Below are positions 1-44,004 of a stretch of 64,000 bases of DNA, one piece after another. Positions within the stretch are counted from its first letter, which is position 1; every line of letters begins with the position of its first letter. This DNA is from an uncultured delta proteobacterium (GTDB lineage: Bacteria; Myxococcota_A; Polyangia; Palsa-1104). Position numbers and translations under genes: made by a program. Below the pieces are notes generated by a model. The model did not search any database and was not told the DNA's origin. It saw only the letters and a program-made list of their open reading frames with translations. Where the stretch lies: positions 32,001-96,000 of the forward strand of contig CAWAWS010000005.1 in NCBI GenBank assembly GCA_963785725.1, read 5' to 3'.

Positions 1-859
1 CGAGATTGCGCAGCACCTGGCGCAGGTGGGCCGCGTCGCCGCGCAAAGGTGGCATCGCCTCCAAACCGACGACCTCGATGCGGACCCCCGGCGGCACGAT
101 CAGCGACGAGCAAACGCTCTCGATCAGGGGTGCCAGGGCGACCGCCTCGCGCAGCAGCGGCCGCTCGCGAATCATGTCGAGCAGCGAGCTGACGATGTCG
201 TTGGCGATGCCGAGCTGCTCGCCTACGCGGGTCACGTGCTTGTGCACGCGCGGGTCGCTGCCGGCGTTCTTGTCGATGATGAACATCGAGGACTCGATGA
301 CGCCGAGCGGGTTGCGCAGCTCGTGGCCGATCGAGCCGATGAGCTGCCCGAAGGTGGCCAGCCGCTCCTTGCGCGCCTGCTGCGCTTCCATGTCCTCGCG
401 GTAGGTATGCAGCATGATGGCGAGCTCGAGATCGAGCATCTTGCCGATGGCTCGCTGCGTGAGCAGCAGCGTCTCGGGAGCGCTGCGATAGGCGTGCTCG
501 ACGACCCCTTTGAGCTCGTCGCGGAGCACGTTCATGGCGCCGAACATGTAGTGCTGCGGCAAGCCAATCCGTACGTGCACACGGCCGATGAGGCAGCGCA
601 GCTGGTAATAATCCTCGTCCCACGGCCCGGCCAGCAGCCAATCCATCCACTGCACGAGCTTGACCTTGAGGTGGCCGACGGTCGACTCGCCGCTCTCGAG
701 CACGCCGCGCGCCTCATCGTGTTCCTGGATGCGCGCGTAGAAGACATCGGCGATGCGCTGGAAGTGCGGCGCGGCGATCGGCCGCAGCGCGTGGAGCGCC
801 TGCTCGTGCGGCGCGCTCCACCCGACATAGCGTTTGAGCTCGGCGAACAGCGTCTCCAT
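1..859 (-). CDS. Globin-coupled (protoglobin) sensor histidine kinase, AfGcHK-like; runs off the window edge
   Basis: Hand translation from ATG 859: METLFAELKRYVGW...FYARI...IGRVHVRIGLPQHYMFGAMN...LDLELAIMLHTYRED...FGQLIGSIGHELRNPLG (globin plus HisKA H-box), reaching GDAAHLRQVLRNL at the edge. Confidence 0.9.
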   Translation of the reverse strand, partial: METLFAELKRYVGWSAPHEQALHALRPIAAPHFQRIADVFYARIQEHDEARGVLESGESTVGHLKVKLVQWMDWLLAGPWDEDYYQLRCLIGRVHVRIGLPQHYMFGAMNVLRDELKGVVEHAYRSAPETLLLTQRAIGKMLDLELAIMLHTYREDMEAQQARKERLATFGQLIGSIGHELRNPLGVIESSMFIIDKNAGSDPRVHKHVTRVGEQLGIANDIVSSLLDMIRERPLLREAVALAPLIESVCSSLIVPPGVRIEVVGLEAMPPLRGDAAHLRQVLRNL

Positions 860-1019
860 TGCGGACTGATGGTGCCTCGTTTCCGGGCCGAGCGATATCG
901 ACAAGCGCCGGCTACCCGCGGAATCTGCAGACTAGGCGCACGTTGGGCCGCCTTCGGCGCCGACCGCGACGAGCGGCGCACGATGCCGCCGTCGCCGCAA
1001 TCGGAGCGCCGAGGCTCGA

Positions 1020-3812: not shown

Positions 3813-3836
3813 CGCGTGAATGGCACGGCGCGAACG

Positions 3837-3879
3837 CGCAAACCCTGCGCCGACAGCGAGCGCGAACGCAGAGCATGCG
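3837..3879. promoter_or_regulatory. Paired enhancer-like boxes
   Basis: CGCAAACCCTGCG and CGCAGAGCATGCG, 30 bp apart, 32 bp from the promoter. Confidence 0.7.
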
Positions 3880-3910
3880 CGCCACAGAGCGCAGCTTCGC
3901 GAGCCGCAGC

Positions 3911-3926
3911 TGGCATCGCTTTCGCT
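3911..3926 (+). promoter_or_regulatory. sigma54 promoter, near-leaderless
   Basis: TGGCATCGCTTTCGCT; ATG 15 nt after the -12 C; conserved upstream of the paralog at 21988. Confidence 0.7.
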
Positions 3927-3939
3927 AACAAGCCGCTCC

Positions 3940-5115
3940 ATGCACACGATCACGGTCTTCGTCATCCTTGCTGCGTTGGTGGCGCTCGCTTGGCAGTACC
4001 GGCGGTTGCTGCCGGCGGCACAAAGGCGCAGCGAGCCGCCGCCGCCACCGGCGCGATATCCTTCGTTGACGATGGTGCGACCCATCCGCGGCCTCGACTT
4101 CGGCGCGAGTGAGAACGTCACGGCGCTGCTCGCCTCCACGTATCCCGGGACACTGGAGCTTCTCTTCGTCCTCGATGACGAGAGCGACCCGGCGCTGCCG
4201 CTGGTGCGCGCGCTCGTCGCCGCGCATGTCGCCAAGCAGCCGCGGGCGCAGGTCAAGGTGCTGCTCGCGGGCGCGCCGCCGGCGGGACGCACCGGCAAGC
4301 TGCACGCGATGTCGGTCGGCGTCCGCCAGGCCACCGGCGAGCTCATCGGCTTCACCGACTCCGACACGCGGCTCGCGCCGGATCAGCTGCAGGCGATGGT
4401 CGCTGAGCTGCTCGCTTCGCCGCTCGCCGGCGACGTCTTTGCGCCAGCCGTCGCGGTGTCGCCGCCACGCACCATCGGCGATGCCGGCTATGCGCTCATG
4501 CTCAACAGCTGGTACGGCGCGGTCGCCGCCGCCAGCGCCGGCGAGACGCACGAGCTGCCCTTCATCATGGGTCAGCTCATGATCTTCCGTCGCGAGGCGC
4601 TCGTCGCCATCGGCGGCGTCGAGAGCGCCGACGGCCAGCTCGTCGACGACATGTACCTCGGCCGTCGCGTCGTCGCATTCGGTTACCGCAACCTCATGAG
4701 CCGTCAGCCGCTGCGCGTGGTCTCGGAGCAGCTCAGCCTGTCGGGCTTCGTCGTGCTCATGCGCCGCTGGCTCCTCTTTTCGCGCAGCGGTCTGCCCACG
4801 CGCTTCAAGCGTCCCGCCTGGATGCACGGCTTGGCGCTCGGTGTGACGCTGGCCGCGCTGTGTGGCGCGCTCATCGCCGGCTGGACGGCCGTCGCGATCT
4901 TCGCGGCGCTCACGCTGGCCATGGGCTGCATCGGCGACGTCTTCCTGCACCGGGAGCTGGGCGGCGCGCCCATGCCGCTCAAGTGGTGGTGGGTGACCTT
5001 GATCGTGCCGGTGCTCGGCCCGTTTGCGCTCGCTTCGCTGCTCTTCGACCGCCACGTCGACTGGCGTGGTCGCGACTACGCGCTCGACACCGGCGCGCAC
5101 CTCGGCCACTCGTAG
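3940..5115 (+). CDS. GT21/GT2 glycosyltransferase (ceramide glucosyltransferase/HpnI-like)
   Basis: RPIRGLD, GKL, DSD, MG, LVDD, MRRW, C-terminal TMs and WRGRDY. Confidence 0.85.
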   Translation: MHTITVFVILAALVALAWQYRRLLPAAQRRSEPPPPPARYPSLTMVRPIRGLDFGASENVTALLASTYPGTLELLFVLDDESDPALPLVRALVAAHVAKQPRAQVKVLLAGAPPAGRTGKLHAMSVGVRQATGELIGFTDSDTRLAPDQLQAMVAELLASPLAGDVFAPAVAVSPPRTIGDAGYALMLNSWYGAVAAASAGETHELPFIMGQLMIFRREALVAIGGVESADGQLVDDMYLGRRVVAFGYRNLMSRQPLRVVSEQLSLSGFVVLMRRWLLFSRSGLPTRFKRPAWMHGLALGVTLAALCGALIAGWTAVAIFAALTLAMGCIGDVFLHRELGGAPMPLKWWWVTLIVPVLGPFALASLLFDRHVDWRGRDYALDTGAHLGHS

Positions 5116-8372: not shown

Positions 8373-8412
8373 TCGAACGACGCGCGGCGCGTCGACGACC
8401 GATTCGTGACGG

Positions 8413-8465
8413 CGCAGTGTTTGCGGCCCGAATCGGGCTCACGACTCATCGACGCAAGCCTTGCG
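8413..8465. promoter_or_regulatory. Paired enhancer-like boxes
   Basis: CGCAGTGTTTGCG and CGCAAGCCTTGCG, 40 bp apart, 32 bp from the promoter. Confidence 0.7.
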
Positions 8466-8496
8466 CGCGATCGGGGTCGAACCGTGCCTTTGGCGC

Positions 8497-8512
8497 TGGT
8501 CCGTAGGTTGCT
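8497..8512 (+). promoter_or_regulatory. sigma54 promoter of the cytochrome operon, near-leaderless
   Basis: TGGTCCGTAGGTTGCT; ATG 14 nt after the -12 C. Confidence 0.72.
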
Positions 8513-8524
8513 GAGGCACACCGC

Positions 8525-11020
8525 ATGCGAAGCCGCCCAATCCTCCTCGCGCTGTGTGTGGCTCTCGGCTGCGAAGGTCCGCGCGGGCCGGCGGGAGCGA
8601 CGGGTCCAGCCGGTGCCACCGGTCCGACCGGCGACGCGGGAGCGCCCGGCGCGACGGGTCCGAGCGGCGACGCCGGCACCAACGGCTGCCCCGGCCTCGA
8701 GCCGGGCGCGACCGTCGGCCTGAACGCCGTCGTCGACCTCTCGACTCCGGCCAACGGCAGCTTCTTCGTCGTCGGTGAACGCGCCAAGGTCACGATTCAC
8801 TTCACCAACGGCTGCGGGCAGACCTTGCGGCCGAGCGACCTCGGGACGGCGAGCCTGTATCTGTCGGGACCGCGGCTCGGCTCGCTGACGACGACGGCGG
8901 CCAAGCTGCTCAACTGCGTCACCGATCGCAGCGCGACCGACGGCCAGCACCACTACATCAACCTGCGCAGCCCGAGCTACGCCGATCCGTCGCAAGCCAA
9001 CTTGAGCAGCGCCGCCGACGGCACGCTGACCTACACCTTGGCGCCCGTCAGCGACGAGGCCGCCGGCACGTACACGCTCGGCGTCTGGGCCAAGAGCACC
9101 GACGACAAAGACCAGCTGTTCCCGACGCTCGACTTGCAAATCGGCAACGCCACCGCCGAAACCTTTGCCAGCGGTCCGAGCGCGACGTCGACCTGCTACT
9201 CGTGCCACCGCGGCGCGCAGTCCGGCAAGTCTTATCAGGCGCACATCATCCCCGGCTTCTCGCCCGAGGGAAACTACGCGCTCGACGCCACGCCCATCGC
9301 CACCTGCAAGCTCTGCCACAACCTCGACGGCTACAGCGCCAATCCCACCGTGCGCAAGGTCCACGGCGCACATCGCGGTGCCAACCAGCTGGCGCCCGGC
9401 GTCGCTCACCCCGAGTACGGGCTCGCCGCCGATCCGACGCTGGCCGAGCTCACCGACGTCACGTTCCCGTCGATGCCGGGCGCCGAGAACGACTGCGGCA
9501 AGTGCCACGTCGACGCGCGCTGGAAGACGGCGACGCGGCTCGCCTGCGGCACCTGCCACGACAACCTCTTCTTCGACACCGGCACGCTGACGCCGCCGCG
9601 CACGTTCGGCCCGCCTCCCGCCGGCGCGTGCACGTCGGACGCCGCCTGCGGCGTCTTCGGCGACTTCGCGACCTGCGATTTGCCGTCGGGGAGCTGCTTG
9701 CGCAAGACGCACCCGCCGCAGGCCGACGACGCCCAATGCAGCGTCTGCCACACCCCCGACCCGCCGGGGCTGGCAGCGGTCTCAGCGGTGCACGCGATCC
9801 TGCCGGTCACGGCGAACCCGGGCCTCACGCTGAGCAACGTCACGCTGAGCGGCGCCAGCGGCAGCGGCGGCGCGTTCATTGCCGGCACCGACACGCCGGT
9901 CGTGACCTTCGCGCTCGTCGACGGAACCGGGACGGCCATCGCCACGCTCAAGTCGAGCTCGGTCTTCTCGGCCACCGCCATCGTGTCCGGCCCCACCGAC
10001 GACCGGCAGCGCGTCTACGGACCGCTCACCCTGAAGTCGCAAGGCACGCTCGCCTTCGACGCCACCAAGGGTCTCTATACGTACACCTTCCCGACCGCGT
10101 TTCCGGTCGGCGCGCTCGCGCCCTACAACACGACCGCGCCCTACAGCCGCGCCAACGGGCCCGGCACGTACACGCTGTGGCTCTACGTCAATGAGACCGT
10201 GACCGCGAGCGGTCAGACCTTCCGCGCCGCGGCCAACTCAATCGTCGACTTTCCCGTCGGCACCGCCGGGCCGGTGCAGCCGCGTCAGGTCGTCGCCGAT
10301 GCCGCGTGCAACGGCTGCCACGTCAACGTGCAGGCGCACGGCGGCTCGCGACAGGGCGTCGGCAGCCAGTGCTCGAATTGCCACACCAAGGGCGCGCTCG
10401 ACTTCGGCGTCGGCTCGAAGGGGCTCGCCTGCACGACGAGCGCGCAGTGCGGCGGCAACGCCGCCGGCTGGGAAGCGTGCCAGGACACCAACGGCGACGG
10501 CACGCCCGACAGCTGCGTGGTCACCGTCGATCCCACGCCCGGTCAGACCATCGACTTCGGCGTGCTCGCGCACGACATCCACTACGCCCGCCTCCGCGAC
10601 GGCTACGCCGAGCGCAACAACCTCGTCGCACCGGGCACGCTCACCGTGCTCGGCTATCAGAACGCGCTGTCGAGCTTCGCCACGGATCTGCTTCCGCAGG
10701 ACGTGCGCAACTGCAAGACCTGCCACGCCGACGCCGGCGGCAGCTGCTCGGCGACGCAGCCGTGCGGCATCGGTCAGTCGTGCGTGAGCGGCAGCTGCGT
10801 CAACGTCGCCTGGCTGACGCCGTCGACCCGCGTCTGCACTTCGTGCCACGACGACGCCAGCACCGCCGGCCACGCCGCCATCAACACCTGGACGGACGGC
10901 AGCGGCAACGTCATCGAGACCTGCGCCACCTGCCACGGCTCGGGCGCGCAATTCGCCGTCGACGTCGTGCACCAGATCGCCTCGCCCTACGTGCCGCCCT
11001 ATCCGCGAGAGAAGCAATAG
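8525..11020 (+). CDS. Decaheme c-type cytochrome lipoprotein, OmcA/MtrC-like
   Basis: Lipobox ALGC, collagen-like G-x-x linker, 10 CxxCH in two groups of 5 separated by beta-rich domains; RQVV...CNGCH...HGGSR. Confidence 0.88.
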   Translation: MRSRPILLALCVALGCEGPRGPAGATGPAGATGPTGDAGAPGATGPSGDAGTNGCPGLEPGATVGLNAVVDLSTPANGSFFVVGERAKVTIHFTNGCGQTLRPSDLGTASLYLSGPRLGSLTTTAAKLLNCVTDRSATDGQHHYINLRSPSYADPSQANLSSAADGTLTYTLAPVSDEAAGTYTLGVWAKSTDDKDQLFPTLDLQIGNATAETFASGPSATSTCYSCHRGAQSGKSYQAHIIPGFSPEGNYALDATPIATCKLCHNLDGYSANPTVRKVHGAHRGANQLAPGVAHPEYGLAADPTLAELTDVTFPSMPGAENDCGKCHVDARWKTATRLACGTCHDNLFFDTGTLTPPRTFGPPPAGACTSDAACGVFGDFATCDLPSGSCLRKTHPPQADDAQCSVCHTPDPPGLAAVSAVHAILPVTANPGLTLSNVTLSGASGSGGAFIAGTDTPVVTFALVDGTGTAIATLKSSSVFSATAIVSGPTDDRQRVYGPLTLKSQGTLAFDATKGLYTYTFPTAFPVGALAPYNTTAPYSRANGPGTYTLWLYVNETVTASGQTFRAAANSIVDFPVGTAGPVQPRQVVADAACNGCHVNVQAHGGSRQGVGSQCSNCHTKGALDFGVGSKGLACTTSAQCGGNAAGWEACQDTNGDGTPDSCVVTVDPTPGQTIDFGVLAHDIHYARLRDGYAERNNLVAPGTLTVLGYQNALSSFATDLLPQDVRNCKTCHADAGGSCSATQPCGIGQSCVSGSCVNVAWLTPSTRVCTSCHDDASTAGHAAINTWTDGSGNVIETCATCHGSGAQFAVDVVHQIASPYVPPYPREKQ

Positions 11021-12205
11021 GTGCGGCTGCCGATGGTGCTGGTCAGCCTCCTCGCGGTCGGCTGCGGCGTGGCGCGCGCCGTCGACGGCCGCCGGTGCGC
11101 CAGCGCCGCCGACTGCGAGCAGATCCATCCCGCCGGCATCGCCGATCCGAGCAGCCCCGACTTTCACGGGCAGCTCGTGCAGTCGCTCGGCTGGAACCTC
11201 GGGCTGTGCGCGCAGTGCCACGGCGCCGACTTCAGCGGCGGCGCCTCGGGCAAGTCGTGCCTGACGTGCCATGCCCAAGGACCGACCGCCTGCACCGTCT
11301 GCCACGCACAACCGCCGGCGACGGGCGCGCACGTCGCCCACGCCGCCAAATACGACTGCACCGTCTGCCACGTCAAGCCGGCAGCGTGGAACGATCCCGG
11401 GCACCTCTTCGCCAGCGACGGCAGCGTCATCACGAGCGCGCGCATCACGTTCGGCGGGCTCGCCGTGAGCCACGGCGCGACGCCGAGCTGGGATGGCGCC
11501 AGCTGCAGCGGCACCTATTGCCACGGCAGCGCCAAGCCGGTCTGGACCGGCGGCGCCGGCCAAGCGGCCTGCGGCAGCTGCCACGCCATTCCGCCCGCCA
11601 ACCACGCCAGCAGCCGCTGCGGCGACTGCCACGTCCGCGTCGCCAACGACCAGGCGCAGATCGTCGACGACGCGCTACACGTCGACGGACAGGTCAGCCT
11701 CGGCGATGACAGCGGCACCTGCCTCGCCTGCCATCCGCAGCCGGGCGGCGCGCACGCCAGCCACACGCAGGCGCTGCACGAGCTGCGCGCCCCGCTCGGC
11801 TGCCCCGAGTGCCACGTCGTGCCCACGATGCTCACGAGCCCCGGCCACATCGATCAGCCGAGCGCGCCAGTCTTCCCCGCCGGCTGGAGCGGGCTCGGCG
11901 CCAACGACGGCGCGCAGCCGACCTGGAGCCTCGCCGCCGGTCAGTGCAGCAGCGTCTACTGCCACGGCGGCGGCAAGACGCTCGGCGCCGACGCCGCCGC
12001 GACGATCATTCGTCAGCCGACGTGGATTCCCGGCAGCGGTGCCGCCAGCTGCGGCGCCTGCCACGGCATCCCGCCCGTCGACGGCGCGCACTCGGCCTCG
12101 ATGGGGCTCGGCGACTGCGCGACGTGCCATCCGACGACGATGAACGCCGGCGGCGGGCTCATCAGCGGCGGCACCCATATGGACGGCGTCATCGATGCGC
12201 TTTAG
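11021..12205 (+). CDS. 12-heme cytochrome c lipoprotein (CxxCH/CxxxxCH type)
   Basis: Lipobox AVGC; 10 CxxCH plus CSGTYCH and CSSVYCH. Confidence 0.88.
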   Translation: MRLPMVLVSLLAVGCGVARAVDGRRCASAADCEQIHPAGIADPSSPDFHGQLVQSLGWNLGLCAQCHGADFSGGASGKSCLTCHAQGPTACTVCHAQPPATGAHVAHAAKYDCTVCHVKPAAWNDPGHLFASDGSVITSARITFGGLAVSHGATPSWDGASCSGTYCHGSAKPVWTGGAGQAACGSCHAIPPANHASSRCGDCHVRVANDQAQIVDDALHVDGQVSLGDDSGTCLACHPQPGGAHASHTQALHELRAPLGCPECHVVPTMLTSPGHIDQPSAPVFPAGWSGLGANDGAQPTWSLAAGQCSSVYCHGGGKTLGADAAATIIRQPTWIPGSGAASCGACHGIPPVDGAHSASMGLGDCATCHPTTMNAGGGLISGGTHMDGVIDAL

Positions 12206-13460
12206 CGCGCGGCCGCTGTTGCTCGTGTTGCTGCTCGGCGGCGTCGCGCGCGGCGAGACGGTCGACGCCACGCTGACCACGATCCTGCAGGGCCGACAAG
12301 ATCCGCGCGACGGCAACCTTTACACGTCGGTGCCGCTGTATCAGACGATGACGCTGACGATCGACGACGTGCCGCTGCGCCATGTCGACGATCTGCGGCT
12401 CGTCCTGTCGGGCTGGGGCCAGTTCCAATTCGCGCCCAGCGGCTCGGCGCTCGCAGGCACCGGTGACGTCGACGTCGGCTTCGTCGAGGGCAAGCTGTTT
12501 CATCGCCGCCTCGAGCTGCGGCTCGGGCGGCAGCTCGTCTTCGGCGGCGCCGCCCACGCCTTGCCGCTCGACGGCGCGTCGGTCACCGCGCGCCTGCCGC
12601 GCCGACTCGCGCTCAACGTCTATGGCGGCGTGCCGGTGACGCCACGCTTCGGCGTGCACCAGGGCGACTTCGCCGCCGGCGGCCGGCTGTCGCTGCGGCC
12701 GACGGTCGACAGCGAGCTGGGCGCGTCGTTCCTCGAGATGCTCAAGGACGGCCTACAGGCGCGCCAGGATCTCGGCTTCGACGCGCGCTATCGCCCGTCG
12801 CTGCCGGCGCTGCGCTCGCTGGTGCTGACCGGCTATGCGCTGGTGAGCCTCATCGAGCTGCGGCTCATCGAGGGCGACGTCGCCGCCGTCTGGCAGGCGC
12901 GCGCGCCCTTGCAGCTCGGCGTCGACTATCGGCGCACCTCGCCCGATCTGTACCTGCCGCGCAGCTCGATCTTGTCGGTCTTCGCGCAGGAGACGCACGA
13001 CGAGGTCGGCGGCAACCTCTATTGGCGCCCGCTGTCGCGCTTGCGCATCGAGGGCGACTATCACGCCATCCTCGACGACGACGGCTTCGGGCAGCGCGGC
13101 GGCGCGCGCGTCGTCGGCACCTTGGGCGCGGCCTTCACGACGACGCTCACCGCCGAGACGCGCGTGCTGCGCCTCGCCACCGGCGACGGCTACGTGCAGG
13201 GTCGGCTCTACGCCATCCAGCGGCTGTCGACGCGGCTCGTCGGGACGCTCGATCTCGACGCCTACTCGCTCGAGAAGCCGATCAACGGCCAGACCTTCTC
13301 GTTCACCAGCGCGGCCACGCTCGGCTGGGACTTCGCGCCCGGCTGGCGCACGGTGCTGACCGCGATCGCCGACTCGACGCCGCAGGTCGAGCGCCGCTTC
13401 GAGTGCATGGCCAAGGTCGTCTACAACGCCGTCTACCACGTGCGGCGGGTGATTCAGTGA
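12195..13460 (+). CDS. Putative outer-membrane beta-barrel porin of a porin-cytochrome complex
   Basis: Signal peptide, alternating amphipathic strands (LELRLGRQ, LQLGVDY, LGWDF), flanked by multiheme genes. Confidence 0.7.
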   Translation: MRFSARPLLLVLLLGGVARGETVDATLTTILQGRQDPRDGNLYTSVPLYQTMTLTIDDVPLRHVDDLRLVLSGWGQFQFAPSGSALAGTGDVDVGFVEGKLFHRRLELRLGRQLVFGGAAHALPLDGASVTARLPRRLALNVYGGVPVTPRFGVHQGDFAAGGRLSLRPTVDSELGASFLEMLKDGLQARQDLGFDARYRPSLPALRSLVLTGYALVSLIELRLIEGDVAAVWQARAPLQLGVDYRRTSPDLYLPRSSILSVFAQETHDEVGGNLYWRPLSRLRIEGDYHAILDDDGFGQRGGARVVGTLGAAFTTTLTAETRVLRLATGDGYVQGRLYAIQRLSTRLVGTLDLDAYSLEKPINGQTFSFTSAATLGWDFAPGWRTVLTAIADSTPQVERRFECMAKVVYNAVYHVRRVIQ

Positions 13461-14524
13461 GCGGCGCGCGCGGCTTTGTCCTCGTCGTCGCTTGTGCCGT
13501 CGGCGCCGCCGCCTGTGCGCCGTGGCTGACGATTCGGCTGCCGTACAAAGCCGATCACCTCAAGGTGCCGCACGGGCTGCACGCGCAAGGCAAGGTCGAG
13601 TGCATCGCCTGCCACGACGAGCTCTACGACGCCAAGAACCTCGAGCAGCGCGTGCTGCCCGCCGAGGCCAAGTGCCTCGAGTGCCACCGCGAGCAGAAGG
13701 CCAACGGCCAGTGCGGCTTCTGCCACACCGACGTGACGCGCGCCCGAGCGTGGCCGGCGCGCGAGCCGACGCTGCGCATGTCGCACGCCGAGCACATCGA
13801 TCGAGTCAAGGAGGACTGCCATGTCTGCCACAAGACGCTGCCCAATCCGCTGCGCGGCACCGACGGGACGCCGCCCATGAGCGCCTGCCTCTCGTGTCAC
13901 GAGCATCAACAGGAGTACGACGAGGGCCGCTGCTCTCGCTGCCACATCGACTTGACGCGCTATCCGCTCAAGCCCGTGTCGCTGTTCTCGCACCAAGGCA
14001 ACTTCGTGCGCGAGCACGGCCGCTCGGCGCGCGCCGCGGCCGACACGTGCGCCCAGTGCCACGAGCAGACCTTCTGCAGCGACTGCCACGCGCGCACCGT
14101 GTCGATGCCGATCGAGCAGAAGCTGCCCGAGCGCGTCGACGCCGACTTCATCCATCGCAACGACTTCATCGACCGTCATGTCGTCGAAGCGAAGGCCGAT
14201 CCGGCGTCGTGCCGGCGCTGCCACGGCTCGACCTTCTGCGACGACTGCCATCGCGCGCAGAACCTGACGCCGCAAGCGGCCAACCCGCGCGATCCGCACC
14301 CGGCCGGCTGGTCGTTCCCGGGCGCGGCGCAGTTCCACGGCACCGAGGCGCGGCGCGACATCAACCAGTGCGCCGCCTGCCACGATCAGGGCGCGCGCTC
14401 CATCTGCGTCGACTGCCATAAGGTCGGCGGCATCGGCGGCGATCCGCATCCGGCCGGCTGGTCGGCGCGCCACGGCCGTAACGAGATCGCGCGCAGCTCG
14501 ATGTGCCTCGCGTGCCACTCGTGA
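13457..14524 (+). CDS. 13-heme cytochrome c (c3/c7-like repeats), probable lipoprotein
   Basis: GTGA-coupled start; AAAC lipobox; 13 CxxCH counted. Confidence 0.88.
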   Translation: MSGARGFVLVVACAVGAAACAPWLTIRLPYKADHLKVPHGLHAQGKVECIACHDELYDAKNLEQRVLPAEAKCLECHREQKANGQCGFCHTDVTRARAWPAREPTLRMSHAEHIDRVKEDCHVCHKTLPNPLRGTDGTPPMSACLSCHEHQQEYDEGRCSRCHIDLTRYPLKPVSLFSHQGNFVREHGRSARAAADTCAQCHEQTFCSDCHARTVSMPIEQKLPERVDADFIHRNDFIDRHVVEAKADPASCRRCHGSTFCDDCHRAQNLTPQAANPRDPHPAGWSFPGAAQFHGTEARRDINQCAACHDQGARSICVDCHKVGGIGGDPHPAGWSARHGRNEIARSSMCLACHS

Positions 14525-15129
14525 GCCTCGTCGGCCTCGGCATCGTCGCCGCGCTCTTGCTGCTCTTGCCGCTCGTCGTGCGGCCCTCGTTGACGCTGCG
14601 CAGGGTCGGGCGCGTCTTCGCTTTCGTCGCCATCGTCGTCGTGCCGGTGGCGGTGGGCTTCGGCGGCCTCAGCGAGCACATCGAGCACTCCAAGACGACC
14701 GCCTTTTGCCTCTCGTGCCACGTGATGGAGCCGTACGGACGGAGCTTTCACGTCGACGACCTGGACCATCTACGGCGCAGCACTGGCAATACAGCCGCGT
14801 GCCGCGCGAGACCGCCTGCTTTACCTGCCACACCAACTACACGCTTTACGGCGACTACAAAGCCAAGCTGCGCGGGCTGCATCACGTCTGGGTGCAGTAC
14901 CTCGGAACCATCCCGAAGACGCTCGCGCTGTACACCCCGTACGACAATCGCGAGTGCCTGCATTGCCACGACGGCGCGCGCTCGTTCGTCGAGGCGATCC
15001 CGCACAAGAGCTGAGCTCGCCGCCATCCTCGCCAACCGCAAGTCGTGCGTGGCGAGCGGCTGCCACGCCACCGTGCACGACGTCGCGCACGTCGACGCGC
15101 TCCCGAAGTGGCCCAAGGAGAATCCATGA
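14521..15129 (+). CDS. NapC/NirT (CymA-like) membrane tetraheme quinol dehydrogenase; two compensating frameshifts (~14772, ~15009)
   Basis: 2 TMs, FCLSCHVM; shifted frame CFTCH...AKLRGLHHV...CLHCH; original frame CVASGCH...VH. Confidence 0.82.
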   Translation: MSLVGLGIVAALLLLLPLVVRPSLTLRRVGRVFAFVAIVVVPVAVGFGGLSEHIEHSKTTAFCLSCHVMEPYGRSFHVDDLDHLRRSTGNTAACRARPPALPATPTTRFTATTKPSCAGCITSGCSTSEPSRRRSRCTPRTTIASACIATTARARSSRRSRTRAELAAILANRKSCVASGCHATVHDVAHVDALPKWPKENP

Positions 15130-15407
15130 GCGACCGCGCGGGAGCGACTGCGAGCGTCCGGCCCGTTGCGCCGGCGGATCGACCGTCCGGCTCGTTGACC
15201 GCCGAAAGAGGTCATACGAGCGACGCGAAGCTGGAGCGGCGGCTACAACTGTCGGCCGCGCTGGTCATGCTCGGGCTCGTCGTCGAGCTGGTCAGCCTGC
15301 GCTGGCATCACCCGACGGCGTTCGTCCTGTTCGTGCTCGTCGGCGGCCTGGCCATGGCGGCCGGCATCTTGCTGTTCTCGTACTCAATCGTTTCCCGAGG
15401 AGGATGA
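15126..15407 (+). CDS. Small two-TM membrane protein
   Basis: ATGA overlaps at both ends; two hydrophobic helices around WHHP. Confidence 0.7.
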   Translation: MSDRAGATASVRPVAPADRPSGSLTAERGHTSDAKLERRLQLSAALVMLGLVVELVSLRWHHPTAFVLFVLVGGLAMAAGILLFSYSIVSRGG

Positions 15408-15742
15408 CCATGCGTTGGATCTTCGTGATGGCGCTCGTGCCGAGCTTGGCGTTTGCAGACGGCAACCCGCAGATCGACCGGCTGTGGCGCGCCAAGTGCG
15501 CCTCGTGCCACGGCGCCGATGGCAAGGCGCAGACCGAGCAGGGCAAGAAGATGGCGATCGGCGACTTGTCGACCGCGGCCGCGCAGGCAAAAGTCACCGA
15601 CGCGCAGATCAAGGCGGCGATCAGCGACGGCGTCAATCGCGACCAAAACGGCGTGCACCAGGAGATGGAAGGCTACAAGGCCAAGCTGAAGCCGGACCAG
15701 ATCGACGGTCTGGTCACGTACGTGCGGGCGCTCAAGAAGTAG
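15404..15742 (+). CDS. Class I monoheme cytochrome c (c6/c553-like)
   Basis: Signal peptide AFA, CASCHGADG, distal Met in QEMEGY; start 15404 or 15410. Confidence 0.9.
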   Translation: MTMRWIFVMALVPSLAFADGNPQIDRLWRAKCASCHGADGKAQTEQGKKMAIGDLSTAAAQAKVTDAQIKAAISDGVNRDQNGVHQEMEGYKAKLKPDQIDGLVTYVRALKK

Positions 15743-19210: not shown

Positions 19211-21779
19211 TCAGCGGATGAGCTTGCGCATCAGTCGCCCCTTGACCAGCTCGACCAACCCCAAGTAAGTGAGCGTCGCCAGCGTCAAGAAGGCGAAGAA
19301 CGGCAGCGGCAACGGCACGAAGCCGAGCGCGCCCGCCAGCGGCGAATAGGGCAGCGCCAGCGCCACCGCCGTCGCGCCCAGCGTCGTCAGCACGAGCGCC
19401 GGGCTGGGCCGATTGCGCCACGGCCGCCCAACGGTGCGAATGACGAACAGCACCAGCGTCTGCGTCGCCAGCGACTCGACGAACCAGCCCGTGTGAAACA
19501 GCCGCTCGGACGCGTGAAACAGCCGCAGCAGCACGAAGAAGGTCAGAAAGTCGTAGATCGAGCTGAGCGGGCCGATCCACAGCATGAAGCTGCGAATCGC
19601 GCCGATGTCCCACTTGCGCGGCTTGATCGTGTAGGCCGGGTCGACGCGATCGAGCGGGATCGTCAGCTGCGCCAGGTCGTAGAGGAAATTATTGAGCAGG
19701 ATCTGCGTCGGCAGCATCGGCAGGAACGGCAAGAAGAGCGACGCGCCCGCCATCGACAGCATGTTGCCGAAGTTGGAGCTGGTGCCCATGAGCAGGTACT
19801 TGAGCACGTTGCCGAAGGCGCGCCGCCCCTCGACGATGCCGGTATGCAGGACGTCGAGGCCCGGCCGCATGAGGATGACCTCGGCGGCGTCGCGCGCCAC
19901 GTCGACGGCGCTGGCGACCGAGATGCCGACATCGGCGGCGCGCAAGGAAGGCGCATCGTTGATGCCGTCGCCGAGGAAGCCGACGACGTGGCCGCGACTC
20001 TTGAGCGCCATCAGAGATCCGGTTCTTCTGCCCGGGGCTCAGCCGCGCGAACAGCGCCACCTCCTCGGCGCGCTTGCCCAGCGCCGCGTCGGTCAGCCGA
20101 CCGATGTCGGCGCCCGAGAGCACATCGTCGACGGGCAAGCCGACGCGCGCGCAGACATGACGGGCAACGGGCTCGTTGTCGCCGGTGAGGATCTTGACCA
20201 CGACGCCGTCGGCGCGCAGCCGCTCGAGCATGGCCGCGGCGTCGTCGCGAGGCGGGTCGCAAAAGGCGAGGAAGCCGAGGAGCGTGAGGTCGCGCTCGTC
20301 GCCGGCGTCGAGCCCGTCCGGGCGTGTGACCGCGGCGATCGCCACCGCCAGCACGCGCAACCCCTCTTCGCCGAGCGCACCGAAGGTCGCTTGCGCGCGC
20401 GCCTGCTCGGCGTCATCGAATGGGATGCGGCGACCGTCGCGCTCGACCGCGCTGCACAGCGGCAGCACCGACTCCGGCGCGCCCTTGGTGACGAGCAGAT
20501 GCTGCGCGTCGTGCTGCAAGACGACGGAGACGCGCCGGCGCTCGAAGTCGAACGGGATCTCGTCCGTCTTGCGCCAACCTTCGGCCGGCGTGCACGGTCG
20601 CGCCAGGATGGCGGCGTCGAGCGGGCTCTTGATGCCGGTCTCGTAAACCGCGTTGAGATAGCCGTGCTCGAGCACACGCGGCGCGTCGTTGCCGGCGATG
20701 TCGACGGTGCGCTCGAGCGCGGTCGAGCCGGTGGTGAGCGTGCCGGTCTTGTCGCTGCACAACACATCGATGCTGCCGAGGTTCTGGATCGCCGCCAGCT
20801 GCTTCACGATCACGTGCGCACGGCCCATGCGCACCGCGCCGCGCGCCAGCGTCACCGTCGTGATCATGGGCAGAAACTCGGGCGTCATGCCGACGGCGAG
20901 CGCGACGGCGAACAGCAGCGACTGAAAGGCGTCGCGATGCAGCAGCACGCTCACCATCACGATGAACAGCACGAGAAACAGCACGGTGCGCGCGATGAAG
21001 AGGCCGAACTGCCGCGTGCCGCGCTCGAACTCCGTCGGCGGCGGGTGATGCGCCAGCCGGGCAGCGATGTCGCCGAAGGCGGTGGCCGCGCCGGTAAAGG
21101 CCACCCGCGCCGTCGCCGTGCCGCTGACGACGGAAGTGCCGAGGAAAACCATGTGCGCCGCGTCGGCGTCGCGCGAGACCGGCAGCACCCCCGAGCGCTT
21201 CTCGACCGGCAGCGACTCGCCCGTCAGCGCCGCCTGCGCCACATGCAAATCGTGGGATGACAAGAGCCGGCAGTCGGCGGGGACCAAGTCTCCCGCGCAC
21301 AGCTTGACGAGATCGCCGGGGACGATTTCGCGGCGCGGCAGCTCTTGCCAACGACCGTCGCGCATGACGGTCGCCGTCGGCGCGACCGTCGCCTGCAGAC
21401 GCTCCACGGCGCGCGCCGAGCGATAGGTCTGCACGAAGTCGATGGCGATGCCGAGCACGACCATGAGCCCGATGATCGCCGCGTCCACGCGTTCGCCGAG
21501 CACGGCCGAGACCACCGCGGCGATGGCCAAGAGAAGTATCAACGGGCTGGCCGCGAAGTGACCGAGCGCTCGCAAGGGCGACCACCGGTCGGCCGTCGCC
21601 GATTCATTGAAGCCGTGACGCTCGCGCAGCGCGCGCGCCGCTTCGTCGGTCAGTCCGGCGTCGTCAGCGGCGGCGGATTCGCCGCCGGGCGCAGCCGCCT
21701 CGTTCGCCAGCGACGACCCCGCGATCCCCGAAGCGGCGGCGCGGCGATCGCGAGCAGAGACGCGAGTGACAGGGCGCAT
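19211..21779 (-). CDS. mgtA: Mg2+-translocating P-type ATPase; frameshift ~20015
   Basis: TGES, GMTPEFLP, DKTGTLT, KGAPE, GDGINDAP, SSNFGN, FHTGWFVES. Confidence 0.92.
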
Positions 21780-21791
21780 GTCGAACGCCGA

Positions 21792-21807
21792 TGCGAGGCC
21801 CGCGCCA
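21792..21807 (-). promoter_or_regulatory. sigma54 promoter, near-leaderless
   Basis: TGGCGCGGGCCTCGCA; ATG 14 nt after the -12 C. Confidence 0.6.
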
Positions 21808-21913
21808 ACGGATTCGCCGCGGAGCTCGCCGATCGGCGCATCCCGAGCGCGGACGTTGGAAGAACCGTGCCGTCGCCAACGCTCGACTGCCCTGGCCGCA
21901 TGACCCAGCGTCG

Positions 21914-21957
21914 CGCAACCTTGGCGCCCGGATCAGCCGGAAGCCGCAAAGTCTGCG
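21914..21957. promoter_or_regulatory. Paired enhancer-like boxes
   Basis: CGCAACCTTGGCG and CGCAAAGTCTGCG, 31 bp apart. Confidence 0.68.
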
Positions 21958-21987
21958 CGCATTCGACGGGTCGACGCCATCTGCGCC

Positions 21988-22003
21988 TGGCATCGCGCTC
22001 GCT
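21988..22003 (+). promoter_or_regulatory. sigma54 promoter, near-leaderless
   Basis: TGGCATCGCGCTCGCT; ATG 14 nt after the -12 C. Confidence 0.68.
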
Positions 22004-22015
22004 AAGAGCCGCGCC

Positions 22016-23249
22016 ATGCAAACGATCGCGGTCTTCATCATCCTGAGCGCGCTCTCCTGTCTGGCCTGGCAGTGCCGGCGTCTGTTTCAGTCCGCGCAAT
22101 CCCGCGTCGCCCGACCGTCGGTGCCGCGCGGTCATCCTGCGTTGACGATGGTGCGCCCCGTGCGCGGGCTCGACTTCGGAGCGCGCGCGAGCATCGAGAC
22201 GCTGCTGACGAGCGCCTATCCCGGAACGCTCGAGCTCATCCTCGTCCTCGACGATGACGATCCGGCGCTGCCGATGGTGCGCGCCCTAGTCCGACGCCAT
22301 CGGCAGCGCCATCCGGAGGCGTGCGTCAGGTCTTGCTCGCGGGCGCGCCGCCGGCCGGATGCTCGGGCGAGCTGCACGCGATGTCGGTCGGCGCGCGGCA
22401 CGCCACCGGCGCGCTCATCGGCTTCAGCGACTCCGACACGCGGCTCGAGCCGCAACAGCTGCATGCGATGGTCGACGAGCTGCTCGCCGAGCCGAGCGCC
22501 GGCGACGTCTTCGCGCCCACCGTCGCCACCACGTCCCCACGCACGCTCGGCGAGGCCGGCGCCGCACTCTTGGTCAACCGCTGGTATGGCACCGTCGCCG
22601 CTGCCACGGCCGGACCAGCGCAAACGCTGCCCTTACTCACCGGTCCGCTCATGATCTTTCGCCGCGAAGCGCTCGACGCGATCGGGGGATCGGCTGCGCG
22701 GACAGCCAGCTCGTCGCCAAGATGGCGCTCGGCGGTCGCGTCGTCGCATGCGGCTATCGCAACCTCGTGAGCCGCTATCCGCTGCGCCTCGTCACCGAGT
22801 CGCTCGGCCTGTCGGGTCTCGTCGGGTTCATGCGCCGTTGGCTCCTGGTCTCGCGCAGCGGTCTGCCGGCGCGCCTCGCGCGTCCAGTGTGGCTGCACGA
22901 TTTGGCGCTCGGCGTCACGCTGGCGGCGCTCTGCGGCGCGCTCGTCGCCGGCTGGGTCGGCGTCGCCACGTTCGCGGCGCTCACGCTCGCCATTGGCTGC
23001 CTCGGTGACATCCTCTTGCATCAGGAGCTCGGCGGCGCACCCGTCCCTGTCAAGTGGTGGTGGGTCAGCCTGTTGATGGCGCTGCTCGGCCCGTTTGCGT
23101 TCGCGTCGCTGCTCTTCGGTCGTCGTGCTGGCCGCGCGGCCGGCGTTGGGCGTCAGGCGTCGCCCGAGCCGAGGACGTCGTCGACGATCGCGCGCGCTTC
23201 GTCCTGGATCTGCGCGAGGTGGTCGCGACCGCGAAAGCTCTCGGCGTAG
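22016..23249 (+). pseudogene. Degenerate duplicate of the GT21 glycosyltransferase
   Basis: Collinear with 3940-5115; frameshifts ~22330 and ~22686; GKL>GEL, LVDD>LVAK; WRGRDY tail lost; reads into the pgm 3' end. Confidence 0.7.
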
Positions 23250-28015: not shown

Positions 28016-29389
<1,374 letters not shown>

Positions 29390-29463
29390 CTGTTCCTCTC
29401 GATTCCGCTGTTCGCCAGGCAAGCCATCGTCGAATCGGTGCGCGCAACTGCTCCTGCGAGCCA

Positions 29464-29479
29464 AGCAAGCTTCGCGCCA
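29464..29479 (-). promoter_or_regulatory. sigma54 promoter of the activator gene
   Basis: TGGCGCGAAGCTTGCT. Confidence 0.78.
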
Positions 29480-29511
29480 GCCAGAGGAACCCAGCTGGCG
29501 CGTCACACGCC

Positions 29512-29554
29512 GGCAAACGTTGCGCCGGTACCGAGCACAAACGCAAGCTTTGCG
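29512..29554. promoter_or_regulatory. Paired enhancer-like boxes
   Basis: GGCAAACGTTGCG and CGCAAGCTTTGCG, 30 bp apart. Confidence 0.75.
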
Positions 29555-29627
29555 CGTATCAGTCCAGCTGAGGCGGAGCCTGCGGCGAGTCGTTCTTTCT
29601 AGGGCGACACGCGTCGGGATGGAGGCG

Positions 29628-30434
29628 CTATCGCTTCGGCGCTCCGGCCGTCCGCGGTTCACGTTCGAGGAGCCACCAGCGCGGCCGCGGGCGACGGTAG
29701 CTCAAGCCGAAGTCGGACAGCGCACGGGCGCGCACCAAGGCGGCGGCCTCTTGCGGCGAGTCGGTCAGCACGAGGCGGTCGACATCGATGACGTCGATAG
29801 TGCCGCTGCCGAGCAGTCGCTCGCGCAGATAGCCGAGCAGCGGACGCCAATGATCGACGCCCAAGAGGACGATGGGAAAGTCGATCATCTTGCCGGTCTG
29901 AATCAGGACGGCCACTTCGAAGAGCTCATCGAGCGTCCCAAAGCCGCCCGGCACGGCGATAAAGGCGTAGGAGTATTTGGCCAACATCAGCTTGCGCACG
30001 AAGAAATAGCGAAACTGCACCCAGTCATCGAGATAGACGTTCGGCCTCTGTTCGGCGGGCAGGATGATGTTGCAACCGATCGAGCGGCCCTGGACATCCT
30101 TGGCGCCGCGATTGGCCGCCTCCATCAGCCCCGGCCCGCCGCCGGTCAAGACCGTGAATCCAGCGCGCGCGAGCTCGGCCCCGAGCTCCCGCGTCATCGC
30201 ATAATAGGGATGAGTCGGGCCGAAGCGCGCCGAGCCGAAAACCGTCGCGCACGGCCCGGCGAAGTGCAGGTGGCGAAAGCCGCGAATCATCTCGCCGAAG
30301 ACGCGGAAGGCAACGCGGAGCTCACGGTGTCGTGCGCGCGGGCCGACGAGAAATCGCTGCTCCTCGGCATCGCCCGTCGACTTGCCCCATTCCGGCTCCT
30401 CTGGCGTCGCGGCCGGGGCCAGCGGCTGGCTCAT
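29628..30434 (-). CDS. LOG-family (TIGR00730-like) Rossmann-fold protein
   Basis: [29 protein letters not shown]. Confidence 0.92.
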
Positions 30435-37715: not shown

Positions 37716-38060
37716 GACTCACGCGCGAATGTCGGCATTGTCAGGCCGCCGCCGCCGAATGAAATCGCAGCTTCATTCGCCGATTCGCTAAACGTCTGAT
37801 CCCGCACCGGCACAATCTTCTCTTGTTTCATGACGTTCTGCCGGGATGCAGGCTTAGCACGTCGCACTCAGCTGTTTAGCTGATGTACGGCCGACGCTTC
37901 TGCGTATGAACCACGGGAACCGTTACGACAGTCTAATCCCTAGATTTCGCCGAGGTGCGCAGATGCCGCAGGAGCGAGTGAACCAGCGGAGCTCCGCCGA
38001 GCGGCGGCGTCCGAGCATGGACAGGACGTCGATTACGGGCTCATCGGAGACTCTCGCGCC

Positions 38061-42367
<4,307 letters not shown>

Positions 42368-42375
<8 letters not shown>

Positions 42376-42706
42376 CGAGCGCCACAAAAGGGACGCCGCC
42401 CCGGCGCCGACCTTCGCCGCCCGGGTCGGCGCGAAAGCGACACGCAAGCTGAGCGCGCGCCGCAATCCCGCGCAAGGCGTGTGGTTTGGCCTCGGCATGA
42501 TGGGGCTCGTCGGCTGGTCGGTGACGATTCCCACGCTGCTCGGCGCGGCGCTGGGGAGCTGGCTCGACCGGCGGCACTCCGGCCCGCATCCGTGGACGCT
42601 GGCGCTGCTGATGGCCGGGCTCGTGATCGGCTGCTTCAACGCGTGGCATTGGGTCGCCAAAGAGGACAAGGCGATGCAAGACGAACGGCAGGAAGACCAT
42701 GAATGA
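42368..42706 (+). CDS. atpQ: N-ATPase AtpQ (AtpZ/AtpI-like)
   Basis: GLGMMGLVGWSV...GSWLD...NAWHW; operon position. Confidence 0.85.
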
Positions 42707-43013
42707 GGCAGTAACCATCGGGCTGGCCGGCGTGGCCGGCGGAATGCTGGGCCTCGTCTTCTTCGGCGGTCTGTGGTGGACCATTCGCAAGGGCGTCGCG
42801 GCCAAACAGCCGGCGCTCTGGTTCTTGGGCAGCCTATTCGTCCGAATGAGCGTCACCGTCGCCGGCTTCTATCTCGTCTCGGCGGGCAGCTGGAAGCGGC
42901 TGCTGTCATGCCTGCTCGGATTCGTCTTGGCCTGCGCGGCGGTGACCCGACTGACCCGCCGGTCGAGCGAGCCGGTGGCCGACCGCGCCGCCGCGAGCCA
43001 CCATGCGCCTTAG
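42699..43013 (+). CDS. atpR: N-ATPase AtpR
   Basis: FFGGLWWT...SLFVR; operon position. Confidence 0.85.
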   Translation: MNEAVTIGLAGVAGGMLGLVFFGGLWWTIRKGVAAKQPALWFLGSLFVRMSVTVAGFYLVSAGSWKRLLSCLLGFVLACAAVTRLTRRSSEPVADRAAASHHAP

Positions 43014-43728
43014 CTCCGACACGCTGATCTTCTGGCAGCACGGCTTTGTCAAGCTCAACGGCACCATCGTGTTCACGTGGGGACTGATGCTGCTCCTGAC
43101 CGTCGGCTCGTGGCTCACCACCCGCAAGCTCTCGCTCGACCTGAAGCGCGCCCGCTGGCAAAACGTCCTCGAGATCATCGTCACGACGATCGACCAACAG
43201 ATCGCCGAAGTCGGGCTCCGCAATCCCGAGAAGTATCTCGGCTTCTTGGGCACGCTCTTTCTATTCGTCGCCGTGGCCAACCTGTGCACCGTCATTCCCG
43301 GCTATCAGCCGCCGACGGGCTCCCTGTCGACGACGGCGGCGCTGGCGCTGTGCGTCTTGGTCGCCGTCCCCGTCTTCGGAATCGCCGAGCAGGGATTGGG
43401 CGGCTATCTCGAGTCCTATCTCGAGCCGACCTTCATCATGCTGCCCTTCAATATCATCAGCGAGATCTCGCGGACGCTGGCGCTCGCCATTCGCCTCTTC
43501 GGCAACATGATGAGCGGCGCCATGATCGTCGCCATTCTGCTCACGATCACGCCCTTCATCTTTCCCGTCGTCATGACGGCGCTCGGCCTTTTGACCGGCA
43601 TGGTCCAGGCCTACATCTTCAGCATTCTGGCCGCGGTCTATATCGCGGCCGCCACGCGTAAGCACAAGCGGGCGGTCGGCGCAGGCTCGAGCATTCAACG
43701 AACCAACGAGAGGTCGCAGCATGGATAG
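43003..43728 (+). CDS. atpB: N-ATPase a subunit
   Basis: PPT, SRTLALAIRLFGN, VQAYIF. Confidence 0.94.
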   Translation: MRLSSDTLIFWQHGFVKLNGTIVFTWGLMLLLTVGSWLTTRKLSLDLKRARWQNVLEIIVTTIDQQIAEVGLRNPEKYLGFLGTLFLFVAVANLCTVIPGYQPPTGSLSTTAALALCVLVAVPVFGIAEQGLGGYLESYLEPTFIMLPFNIISEISRTLALAIRLFGNMMSGAMIVAILLTITPFIFPVVMTALGLLTGMVQAYIFSILAAVYIAAATRKHKRAVGAGSSIQRTNERSQHG

Positions 43729-44002
43729 CTCGACGGTCATTGCGGTGGCGTCCATTGTCGTCGCCGGCATCACCACCGGATTCGGCACGATGGGCCCGGC
43801 GCTGGCGGAAGGCAGAGCGGTCGCGACCGCGGTCAGCTCGCTGGCGCAGCAGCCCGACGCCTCGGCGACCATCACCCGAACCCTGTTCGTCGGCTTGGCG
43901 ATGATCGAATCGACGGCCATCTACTGCTTCGTGGTCTCGATGATCCTCATTTTCGCCAATCCATTCTGGAATCACGCCATCGCCCATGCAGCGACGAAGT
44001 AA
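43721..44002 (+). CDS. atpE: N-ATPase c subunit with Na+-type ligands
   Basis: PALAEG, QQP loop, ESTAIY. Confidence 0.94.
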   Translation: MDSSTVIAVASIVVAGITTGFGTMGPALAEGRAVATAVSSLAQQPDASATITRTLFVGLAMIESTAIYCFVVSMILIFANPFWNHAIAHAATK

Positions 44003-44004
44003 CC

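Follow-up and report, generated by a model that had tools for sequence, protein, structure and literature searches.

The operon and its predicted products

We analysed a stretch of DNA of 64,000 nucleotides (hereafter, the window, in whose positions all gene coordinates are given) from an uncultured delta proteobacterium (assembly GCA_963785725.1, contig CAWAWS010000005.1, positions 32,001–96,000), which contains an operon for a putative porin-cytochrome conduit between menaquinol and the cell surface. An earlier note on this DNA had described seven abutting or overlapping genes with about 40 hemes. Both statements hold, as the seven genes all lie on the + strand within positions 8525–15742 and contain 37 CxxCH and 3 CxxxxCH sequences, i.e. 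40 heme motifs. The heme-binding sites are spread over five cytochromes (g1, g2, g4, g5 and g7), which are accompanied by one barrel gene (g3). The genes are as follows:

8525..11020, + strand: g1, MtrC/OmcA-family decaheme lipoprotein (831 amino acids, 10 CxxCH)
11021..12205, + strand: g2, CxxxxCH/CxxCH repeat cytochrome with a lipobox-like signal (394 amino acids, 10 CxxCH and 2 CxxxxCH)
12195..13460, + strand: g3, predicted outer-membrane beta-barrel (421 amino acids, no heme motif)
13457..14524, + strand: g4, 13-heme cytochrome, probable lipoprotein (355 codons, 13 CxxCH)
14521..15129, + strand: g5, NapC/NirT (CymA-like) membrane tetraheme cytochrome, frameshifted (3 CxxCH and 1 CxxxxCH)
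15126..15407, + strand: g6, small two-helix membrane protein (93 amino acids, two hydrophobic segments)
15404 or 15410..15742, + strand: g7, periplasmic monoheme class I cytochrome c (1 CxxCH)

Only 11 frames with three or more heme motifs are present in the whole 8.9-Mb genome, and g1, g2 and g4 are three of them, so that this clustering of heme motifs is not due to chance. The heme count is also conserved: each of the 115 g1 sequences in the alignment has 10 motifs, and 118 of the 119 g4 sequences have 13. Two further large multiheme frames were found elsewhere in the genome (G000:C6:232604-235117, 29 CxxCH; C16:196356-199109, 13 CxxCH).

By sequence and predicted fold, g1 is a true MtrC/OmcA homologue. 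It passes PF22113 (106.8 bits against a cut-off of 30) and, given a TIGR03507 score below the cut-off (167 vs 209), is placed as a divergent member of the MtrC group. A g1 profile built from 115 sequences matches the MtrF structure at 1.5e-26 and also matches OmcA, MtrC and UndA. The g1 model has a predicted local distance difference test (pLDDT) score of 91.8, its best 15 fold matches are all UndA, OmcA, MtrC or MtrF, and its predicted layout (beta/5-heme/beta/5-heme) is the four-domain fold of MtrC. The protein also has three inserts with four cysteines each and a linker resembling collagen. No cysteine occurs at residues 433–586, and the CX8C disulfide motif of MtrC domain III (PMC9973256; this and the other papers cited here are represented by the accessible parts of their text) is not present. 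The second cytochrome, g2, passes both TIGR01904 (68.4 bits, cut-off 27) and PF09698 (37.2 bits, cut-off 21.7), and a sequence search of the PDB with g2 returned no match.

The 421-residue product of g3, described as barrel-like in the earlier note, was indeed modelled by AlphaFold2 as a 22-strand barrel without a plug (pLDDT 90.8, predicted template modelling score 0.81). Its C-alpha radius was estimated at approximately 20 Å by a textbook formula, and something must therefore fill this plug-less barrel. g3 is a barrel of no known family: a scan of g3 against Pfam and NCBIfam yielded no family, its profile had no match in the PDB at E ≤ 10, and family scans of its homologues gave one weak OMP_b-brl match among 37 distant sequences and scattered weak matches among 111 close ones.

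The lipobox of g4 is conserved in 83 of 91 full-length homologues, and g4 is thus probably a lipoprotein and not a free periplasmic protein. Its N-terminal half consists of two c7-type repeats, and its profile matches c7-type and ActA structures, not MtrA. No match to g4 was found in the plasmid records searched.

In the case of g5, all four heme motifs expected of the NapC/NirT tetraheme gene that had been reported are present, the fourth being CxxxxCH, but the gene has no open frame in the assembly. It is divided into three pieces by the loss of 1 base near position 14771 and the gain of 1 base near 15008–15012, as judged against an intact copy from the same genus. The first piece of this split gene scores 23 against the PF03264 cut-off of 24.1, and a distant intact NapC-like homologue (L069) exceeds it with 39.7 bits. 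Since the NapC-like gene is a single open frame in relatives, the rpoC gene is likewise split over several frames in the same assembly (G000:C6:189097-193165), and contigs of 92–94% identity from two other sequencing runs contain neither indel (the three comparison runs found represent relatives, not the source sample), the frameshifts are probably assembly errors. A true pseudogene was accordingly rejected as unlikely. The P-type ATPase gene at 19211–21779 is likewise distributed over more than one frame. Such indel errors seem to be widespread in the assembly, and its apparent pseudogenes are to be distrusted. Of the two remaining products, g6 was assigned to no family in library scans, and g7 passes PF00034 (39.9 bits, cut-off 21.3).

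Conservation and predicted regulation

Among 40 relatives that share at least the order with the host, 14 have the barrel. Of 401 genomes sampled from the phylum, 98 match it at E ≤ 0.001; we removed 20 of these matches, for the most part short and with E > 1e-10, as probably unrelated barrels, and nine further ones (1e-10 to 1e-20) were also excluded, leaving approximately 69 genomes (about 17%) with matches below 1e-20. Its occurrence in the other groups searched is patchy (0/22, 4/48, 13/20 and 1/121 genomes). A search of cluster representatives with the barrel yielded 681 proteins at E ≤ 1e-10, and look-alike clusters in Atlas belong mostly to Myxococcota, with one from Zixiibacteriota. 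The barrel is much more widely distributed than the close type of g1, since a g1 profile at 1e-20 matched 0 of 71 genomes of one further group and a 54%-identical g1 homologue annotated in the cultured Anaeromyxobacter oryzae (WP_248360893.1), used as the query at 1e-15, matched 6 of the 401 phylum genomes.

Gene content was compared in 17 close wide loci (from 14 genomes, several ending at contig edges) and 19 distant wide loci picked among the barrel matches; the counts are lower bounds set by the thresholds and are descriptive only, as related genomes are not independent. In this synteny survey, which the earlier note had suggested, the barrel and the 13-heme gene proved constant in 35 of the 36 wide loci, and they are also paired in all 29 short loci examined (11 genomes are common to both sets). 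A g4 homologue adjoins the barrel in all 19 distant wide loci and in 16 of the 17 close ones, and at the single exception a contig edge falls within the barrel gene. This pairing fits the porin-plus-cytochrome co-evolution reported for porin-cytochrome conduits (Pcc) (PMC4245776). Two loci (L071 and L072) are minimal, containing the barrel and the 13-heme gene only, and resemble the two-gene Pcc clusters of Anaeromyxobacter.

Other components are more variable. In the 17 close loci, g4, g2 and the monoheme gene were each found in 16, a close g1 in 14, the NapC-like gene in 10 and g6 in 9, always together with the NapC-like gene; in the 19 distant loci, the corresponding numbers are 19 for g4, 15 for g2, 6 for an MtrC-like gene and 5 for a NapC-like gene. 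Gene order differs between loci, and up to approximately 65 hemes per locus are encoded in distant relatives. Loci lacking the NapC-like gene often contain another quinol-active module, i.e. cytochrome b with an octaheme protein (L023), a Rieske protein with an octaheme protein (L024), a cytochrome b-monoheme module (L027) or an NrfC/NrfD-type module (L031 and L082). As the barrel and the 13-heme protein are constant and the surface and quinol parts vary, the pair represents a fixed core with exchangeable ends, and, judged from gene content, both the MtrC and the NapC part can be exchanged, the latter like a cassette. Some g2 homologues of distant relatives (L070, L073, L074 and L082) are enlarged to 28–36 motifs, and a cytochrome of 23–27 hemes is added beside the 13-heme gene at several loci (L077–L079, L083, L085 and L086).

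The sigma54 control proposed in the earlier note is supported by a predicted site immediately upstream of g1, the position of which is conserved across loci, and the connection with low oxygen has more in its favour than that note could show. An oxygen sensor had been placed beside the operon; a protoglobin kinase gene is present, but it lies approximately 7.6 kb upstream and is not adjacent. The relevant features are as follows:

1..931, − strand: protoglobin-coupled histidine kinase with an NmpU-like domain layout (PF11563 and HATPase_c), extending beyond the start of the window
8412..8426, + strand: predicted NmpR-type enhancer box S1 (GCGCA-N5-TGCGC, 1 mismatch)
8452..8466, + strand: predicted NmpR-type enhancer box S2 (1 mismatch, 25 bases beyond S1)
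8497..8512, + strand: sigma54 −24/−12 site, 13 bases ahead of the g1 ATG
28016..29701, − strand: NtrC-like sigma54 activator, candidate regulator, with its own paired boxes (29511 and 29541) and sigma54 site

Of the 10 loci examined, 5 (the window at 8497–8527, L019, L020, L027 and L035) have a sigma54 site 13–14 bases ahead of their first gene and two more have it at 19–20 bases, compared with a background of 0.44% of the ATGs in the genome having a site at 13–14 bases. Because of this spacing, the transcript would be nearly leaderless. Some other genes in the window show a similar distance between sigma54 site and start.

In Myxococcus xanthus, GCGCA-N5-TGCGC is the sequence recognised by NmpR in the low-oxygen regulon (PMC11841059). 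As the rules for NmpR promoters prescribe, the two boxes are intergenic, have a perfect GCA-N5-TGC core, lie 5–50 bp apart and are followed by a sigma54 site; 6 of the 10 loci have similar boxes ahead of the operon. The system around g1 resembles NmpRSTU of M. xanthus in having paired boxes before a sigma54 site and, nearby, a protoglobin kinase, an NtrC-like activator and genes for universal stress proteins (USPs) and CBS proteins. It differs in its box spacing (14–15 there vs 25 here) and in its target, no porin-cytochrome target being described in the accessible text (PMC11841059). Promoters of M. xanthus with a box spacing near 24 include bound and unbound examples alike (PMC11841059). Low-oxygen induction of the operon is thus predicted from its promoter sequence, with the NtrC-like protein as a candidate NmpR-like activator.

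Positions 1–36000 of the window form a hypoxia-type island, which contains, in addition to the protoglobin kinase and the NtrC-like activator, at least four USP genes, at least six CBS genes, and genes for alcohol dehydrogenases, acetyl-CoA hydrolase and a P-type ATPase. This USP- and CBS-rich neighbourhood matches the NmpR regulon of M. xanthus (PMC11841059) and was counted in favour of low-oxygen control. Further NmpR-type box pairs in the same region are located at 3836/3866, 6521/6551, 15755/15785, 18732/18763 and 29511/29541, with a spacing of 15–16 bases.

The host genome (8.9 Mb, 88% complete) has as its nearest named relatives bacteria labelled Polyangia or Haliangiales, in agreement with the earlier assignment to a probable myxobacterium. 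It encodes cytochrome c maturation, futalosine menaquinone synthesis and two heme-copper oxidases, a combination that fits an aerobe with a backup.

The proposed conduit, its alternatives and known systems

We consider it fairly likely that the operon encodes an outward-directed porin-cytochrome conduit, induced by hypoxia, from menaquinol to the cell surface. The sequences and models show the parts, their families, their co-inheritance and the promoter motifs, together with the predicted barrel and MtrC folds. Menaquinol would be oxidised by the NapC/CymA-like tetraheme cytochrome g5 together with g6, its small partner in the membrane, and the monoheme cytochrome g7 would ferry the electrons through the periplasm. 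The 13-heme lipoprotein g4 would be positioned inside the barrel, threading g3, and g2 and the MtrC-like g1, placed at the cell surface, would pass the electrons to Fe(III) or Mn(IV) oxides or to humic quinones. We infer that the operon would be switched on at low oxygen through an NmpR-like activator. In favour of this reading, g1 matches the surface reductases of Shewanella in both sequence and fold, and alternative quinol-active modules stand in at NapC-less loci. Also in its favour, a pair of boxes, each with one mismatch at most, followed by a sigma54 site occurs at two places in the 8.9 Mb, one of which is the g1 promoter, and at none in two shuffled genomes.

Several observations count against it. 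A monoheme cytochrome and CymA beside a porin-cytochrome pair occur in iron oxidisers too. The best fold matches of g3 are generic (ushers, Occ porins and a TonB receptor, with template modelling (TM) scores of 0.54 or less), and the matches listed include no porin-cytochrome barrel. The CX8C switch absent from g1 is found in 2 of the 115 aligned sequences. As it stands in the assembly, g5 carries frameshifts, and a second NapC was not found in the 88%-complete genome, which has few multiheme proteins (11 frames) compared with the 68 c-type cytochrome genes of A. dehalogenans. As to the promoter, the boxes are 25 bases apart where 14–15 is preferred, and both the boxes and the sigma54 site are missing in 3 of 10 loci. 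The pattern of paired boxes and a sigma54 site was defined after the site at g1 had been seen, and the shuffled control is small.

It is rather unlikely that the conduit runs inward, in the manner of MtoAB-MtoD-CymA, and under microoxic conditions supplies the quinone pool or oxidases with electrons drawn from Fe(II), from reduced humics or from adjacent cells. A monoheme cytochrome c is present in 16 of the 17 close loci, as MtoD is beside MtoAB (PMC5566968, PMC8805035), the Rieske/cytochrome b variants could operate in reverse, and the host has oxidases; low-oxygen induction would suit microaerophilic oxidisers as well. The host, however, makes the low-potential menaquinone, and oxidiser clusters typically lack the MtrC-type surface cytochrome (PMC4245776) that is found here in 14 of 17 close loci. 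Also unlikely is an outward flow that does not support growth, serving instead as a survival valve or capacitor in transient anoxia, in reductive iron acquisition or in cell-to-cell transfer. In favour of this, the operon is a single copy in a multiheme-poor genome and lies amid hypoxia-stress and fermentative genes (USP, CBS, alcohol dehydrogenase, acetyl-CoA hydrolase and phosphoketolase genes), and a gene for a VIT-family transporter is found nearby. Set against these points, dedicated and exchangeable quinol-oxidising modules and up to approximately 65 hemes per locus represent a heavy investment, and the 54%-identical g1 homologue occurs in A. oryzae, a member of a genus known for Fe(III) respiration.

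Two further explanations are far less probable. That the barrel serves to export or assemble the cytochrome lipoproteins and is not the sheath of a heme wire is suggested by its top Foldseek matches, which are pilus ushers (TM 0.43–0.52), and by the lipobox-like signals on three of the cytochromes; yet the usher matches are generic (8–10% identity, root mean square deviation 9–15 Å), g3 is without the plug and the periplasmic domains of ushers, and L071 and L072 pair the barrel with g4 alone, with no surface cytochrome nearby to export. Decay of a system that is real in relatives, with its quinol oxidase gene now a pseudogene, would account for the two frameshifts of g5 in a genome with no other NapC found; it seems very doubtful, as the essential rpoC is also split, the 92–94% identical contigs from two runs have neither indel, and the remaining six genes of the operon are open.

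Comparison with known systems places the putative conduit outside MtrCAB, PCC3 and PCC4, and it fits the loosely drawn description of Pcc. Membership of MtrCAB was rejected, there being no MtrA and no MtrB and g4 having 13 hemes. PF11854 (MtrB/PioB), a barrel of approximately 26–28 strands as opposed to the 22 of the g3 model, was not found for g3 or elsewhere in the 88%-complete genome, and g3 has no TIGR match. As in the MtrCAB clusters with CymA, PdsA or MtoD surveyed by Baker et al. (2022, PMC8805035), an MtrC-type decaheme protein, a NapC-type oxidase and a small periplasmic cytochrome are clustered. The present operon differs in that 13 hemes with c7-type repeats replace MtrA, a 421-residue, 22-strand barrel replaces MtrB, an extra CxxxxCH cytochrome is present, and cysteine-rich inserts and a collagen-like linker are found instead of CX8C. 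Myxococcota, Polyangia and Anaeromyxobacter are not mentioned in the accessible text of that survey.

The core resembles the Pcc systems (OmbB-OmaB-OmcB, ExtABCD, ExtEFG and Adeh_3391-3392; Shi et al. 2014, PMC4245776), in which a barrel of 18–22 strands is co-inherited with a cytochrome of 5–14 hemes, outer cytochromes have atypical CX3-4CH motifs, and outer and inner-membrane partners vary. The partner cytochrome in Anaeromyxobacter has 12 hemes in 338–344 amino acids, compared with 13 hemes in approximately 354 for g4. The Anaeromyxobacter Pcc clusters differ in having two genes only and no outer cytochrome, and no cluster in the accessible text of PMC4245776 has an MtrC-family decaheme protein or a NapC-type gene of the g5 kind. 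The g3/g4 system may represent a Pcc subfamily, in a comparison with OmbB, ExtB, ExtE and Adeh_3391 made by description only. The earlier view of the operon as a Shewanella/Geobacter hybrid thus stands as regards an MtrC-family g1 on a core that is neither MtrA nor MtrB, and its Ext/Omb likeness is one of description only.

With PCC3 and PCC4 (He et al. 2017, PMC5566968), which are likewise predicted from genomes, the operon shares a porin, periplasmic and extracellular multiheme cytochromes and an inner-membrane partner. Membership was rejected on account of the HX13H membrane protein of approximately 300 residues and five helices (PMC5566968), which is absent from the operon and in place of which a NapC-like tetraheme protein and a two-helix protein of 93 amino acids are encoded. 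PCC3 porins are mostly much larger, and PCC4 comprises 4-, 5- and 10-heme cytochromes, none of them extracellular (PMC5566968). Myxococcota metagenome-assembled genomes from boreal lakes (Olmsted et al., bioRxiv 10.1101/2022.03.26.485925) were reported to be the richest in novel multiheme cytochrome clusters, with matches to MtrC, ExtABC and CbcL; no operon, barrel family or regulation is described in the accessible text, and the supplementary tables may include these proteins. Neither the operon nor its barrel family was found described in the literature searched, which did not cover most subscription journals, and no description is given in the accessible text of PMC12133095, PMC9386147, PMC6730927, PMC11492766, PMC12307469 or PMC11748539.

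The principle of the conduit is known from Shewanella and Geobacter, and this combination of parts appears to be undescribed. The complete quinol-to-surface set in one cluster, emphasised in the earlier note, is not unusual, as CymA and periplasmic cytochromes are commonly encoded together with mtrCAB (PMC8805035). Completeness of the cluster is not new, self-contained conduits being already known. What distinguishes the operon is an MtrC-type protein on a non-MtrAB core, an unclassified barrel, cassette-like inner-membrane modules and predicted NmpR-type control, by which its promoter would be connected to a characterised myxobacterial oxygen-sensing system. Polyangia myxobacteria are usually regarded as aerobic predators and decomposers. 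We tentatively propose, as a possibility somewhat short of an even chance, that the operon belongs to a distinct, phylum-wide conduit family, with a 22-strand barrel, a 13-heme c7-derived wire, MtrC recruited without MtrAB and a swappable quinol oxidase, that serves hypoxic mineral or humic respiration in oxygen-respiring Polyangia through NmpR-type sensing. If this is correct, MtrC-type reductases can dock on a conduit that is unrelated to MtrAB and would be overlooked by annotation tools keyed to MtrB, and an appreciable fraction of the uncultured Polyangia and of related lineages would be able to export respiratory electrons under hypoxia and thereby join iron and humic redox cycling. These expectations are tempered by the many similar predicted clusters that exist, the operon being known here from genes and models.

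Other genes of the window

Two related glycosyltransferase family 21-like genes are located at 3820–5115 and 21791–22654, with NmpR-type boxes near the start of each, and the latter gene looks frameshifted. The region 37944–47359, which has a lower GC content (0.62–0.67), contains a phosphoketolase gene followed by an additional ATP synthase operon in which the beta subunit is encoded first, an order typical of N-ATPase.

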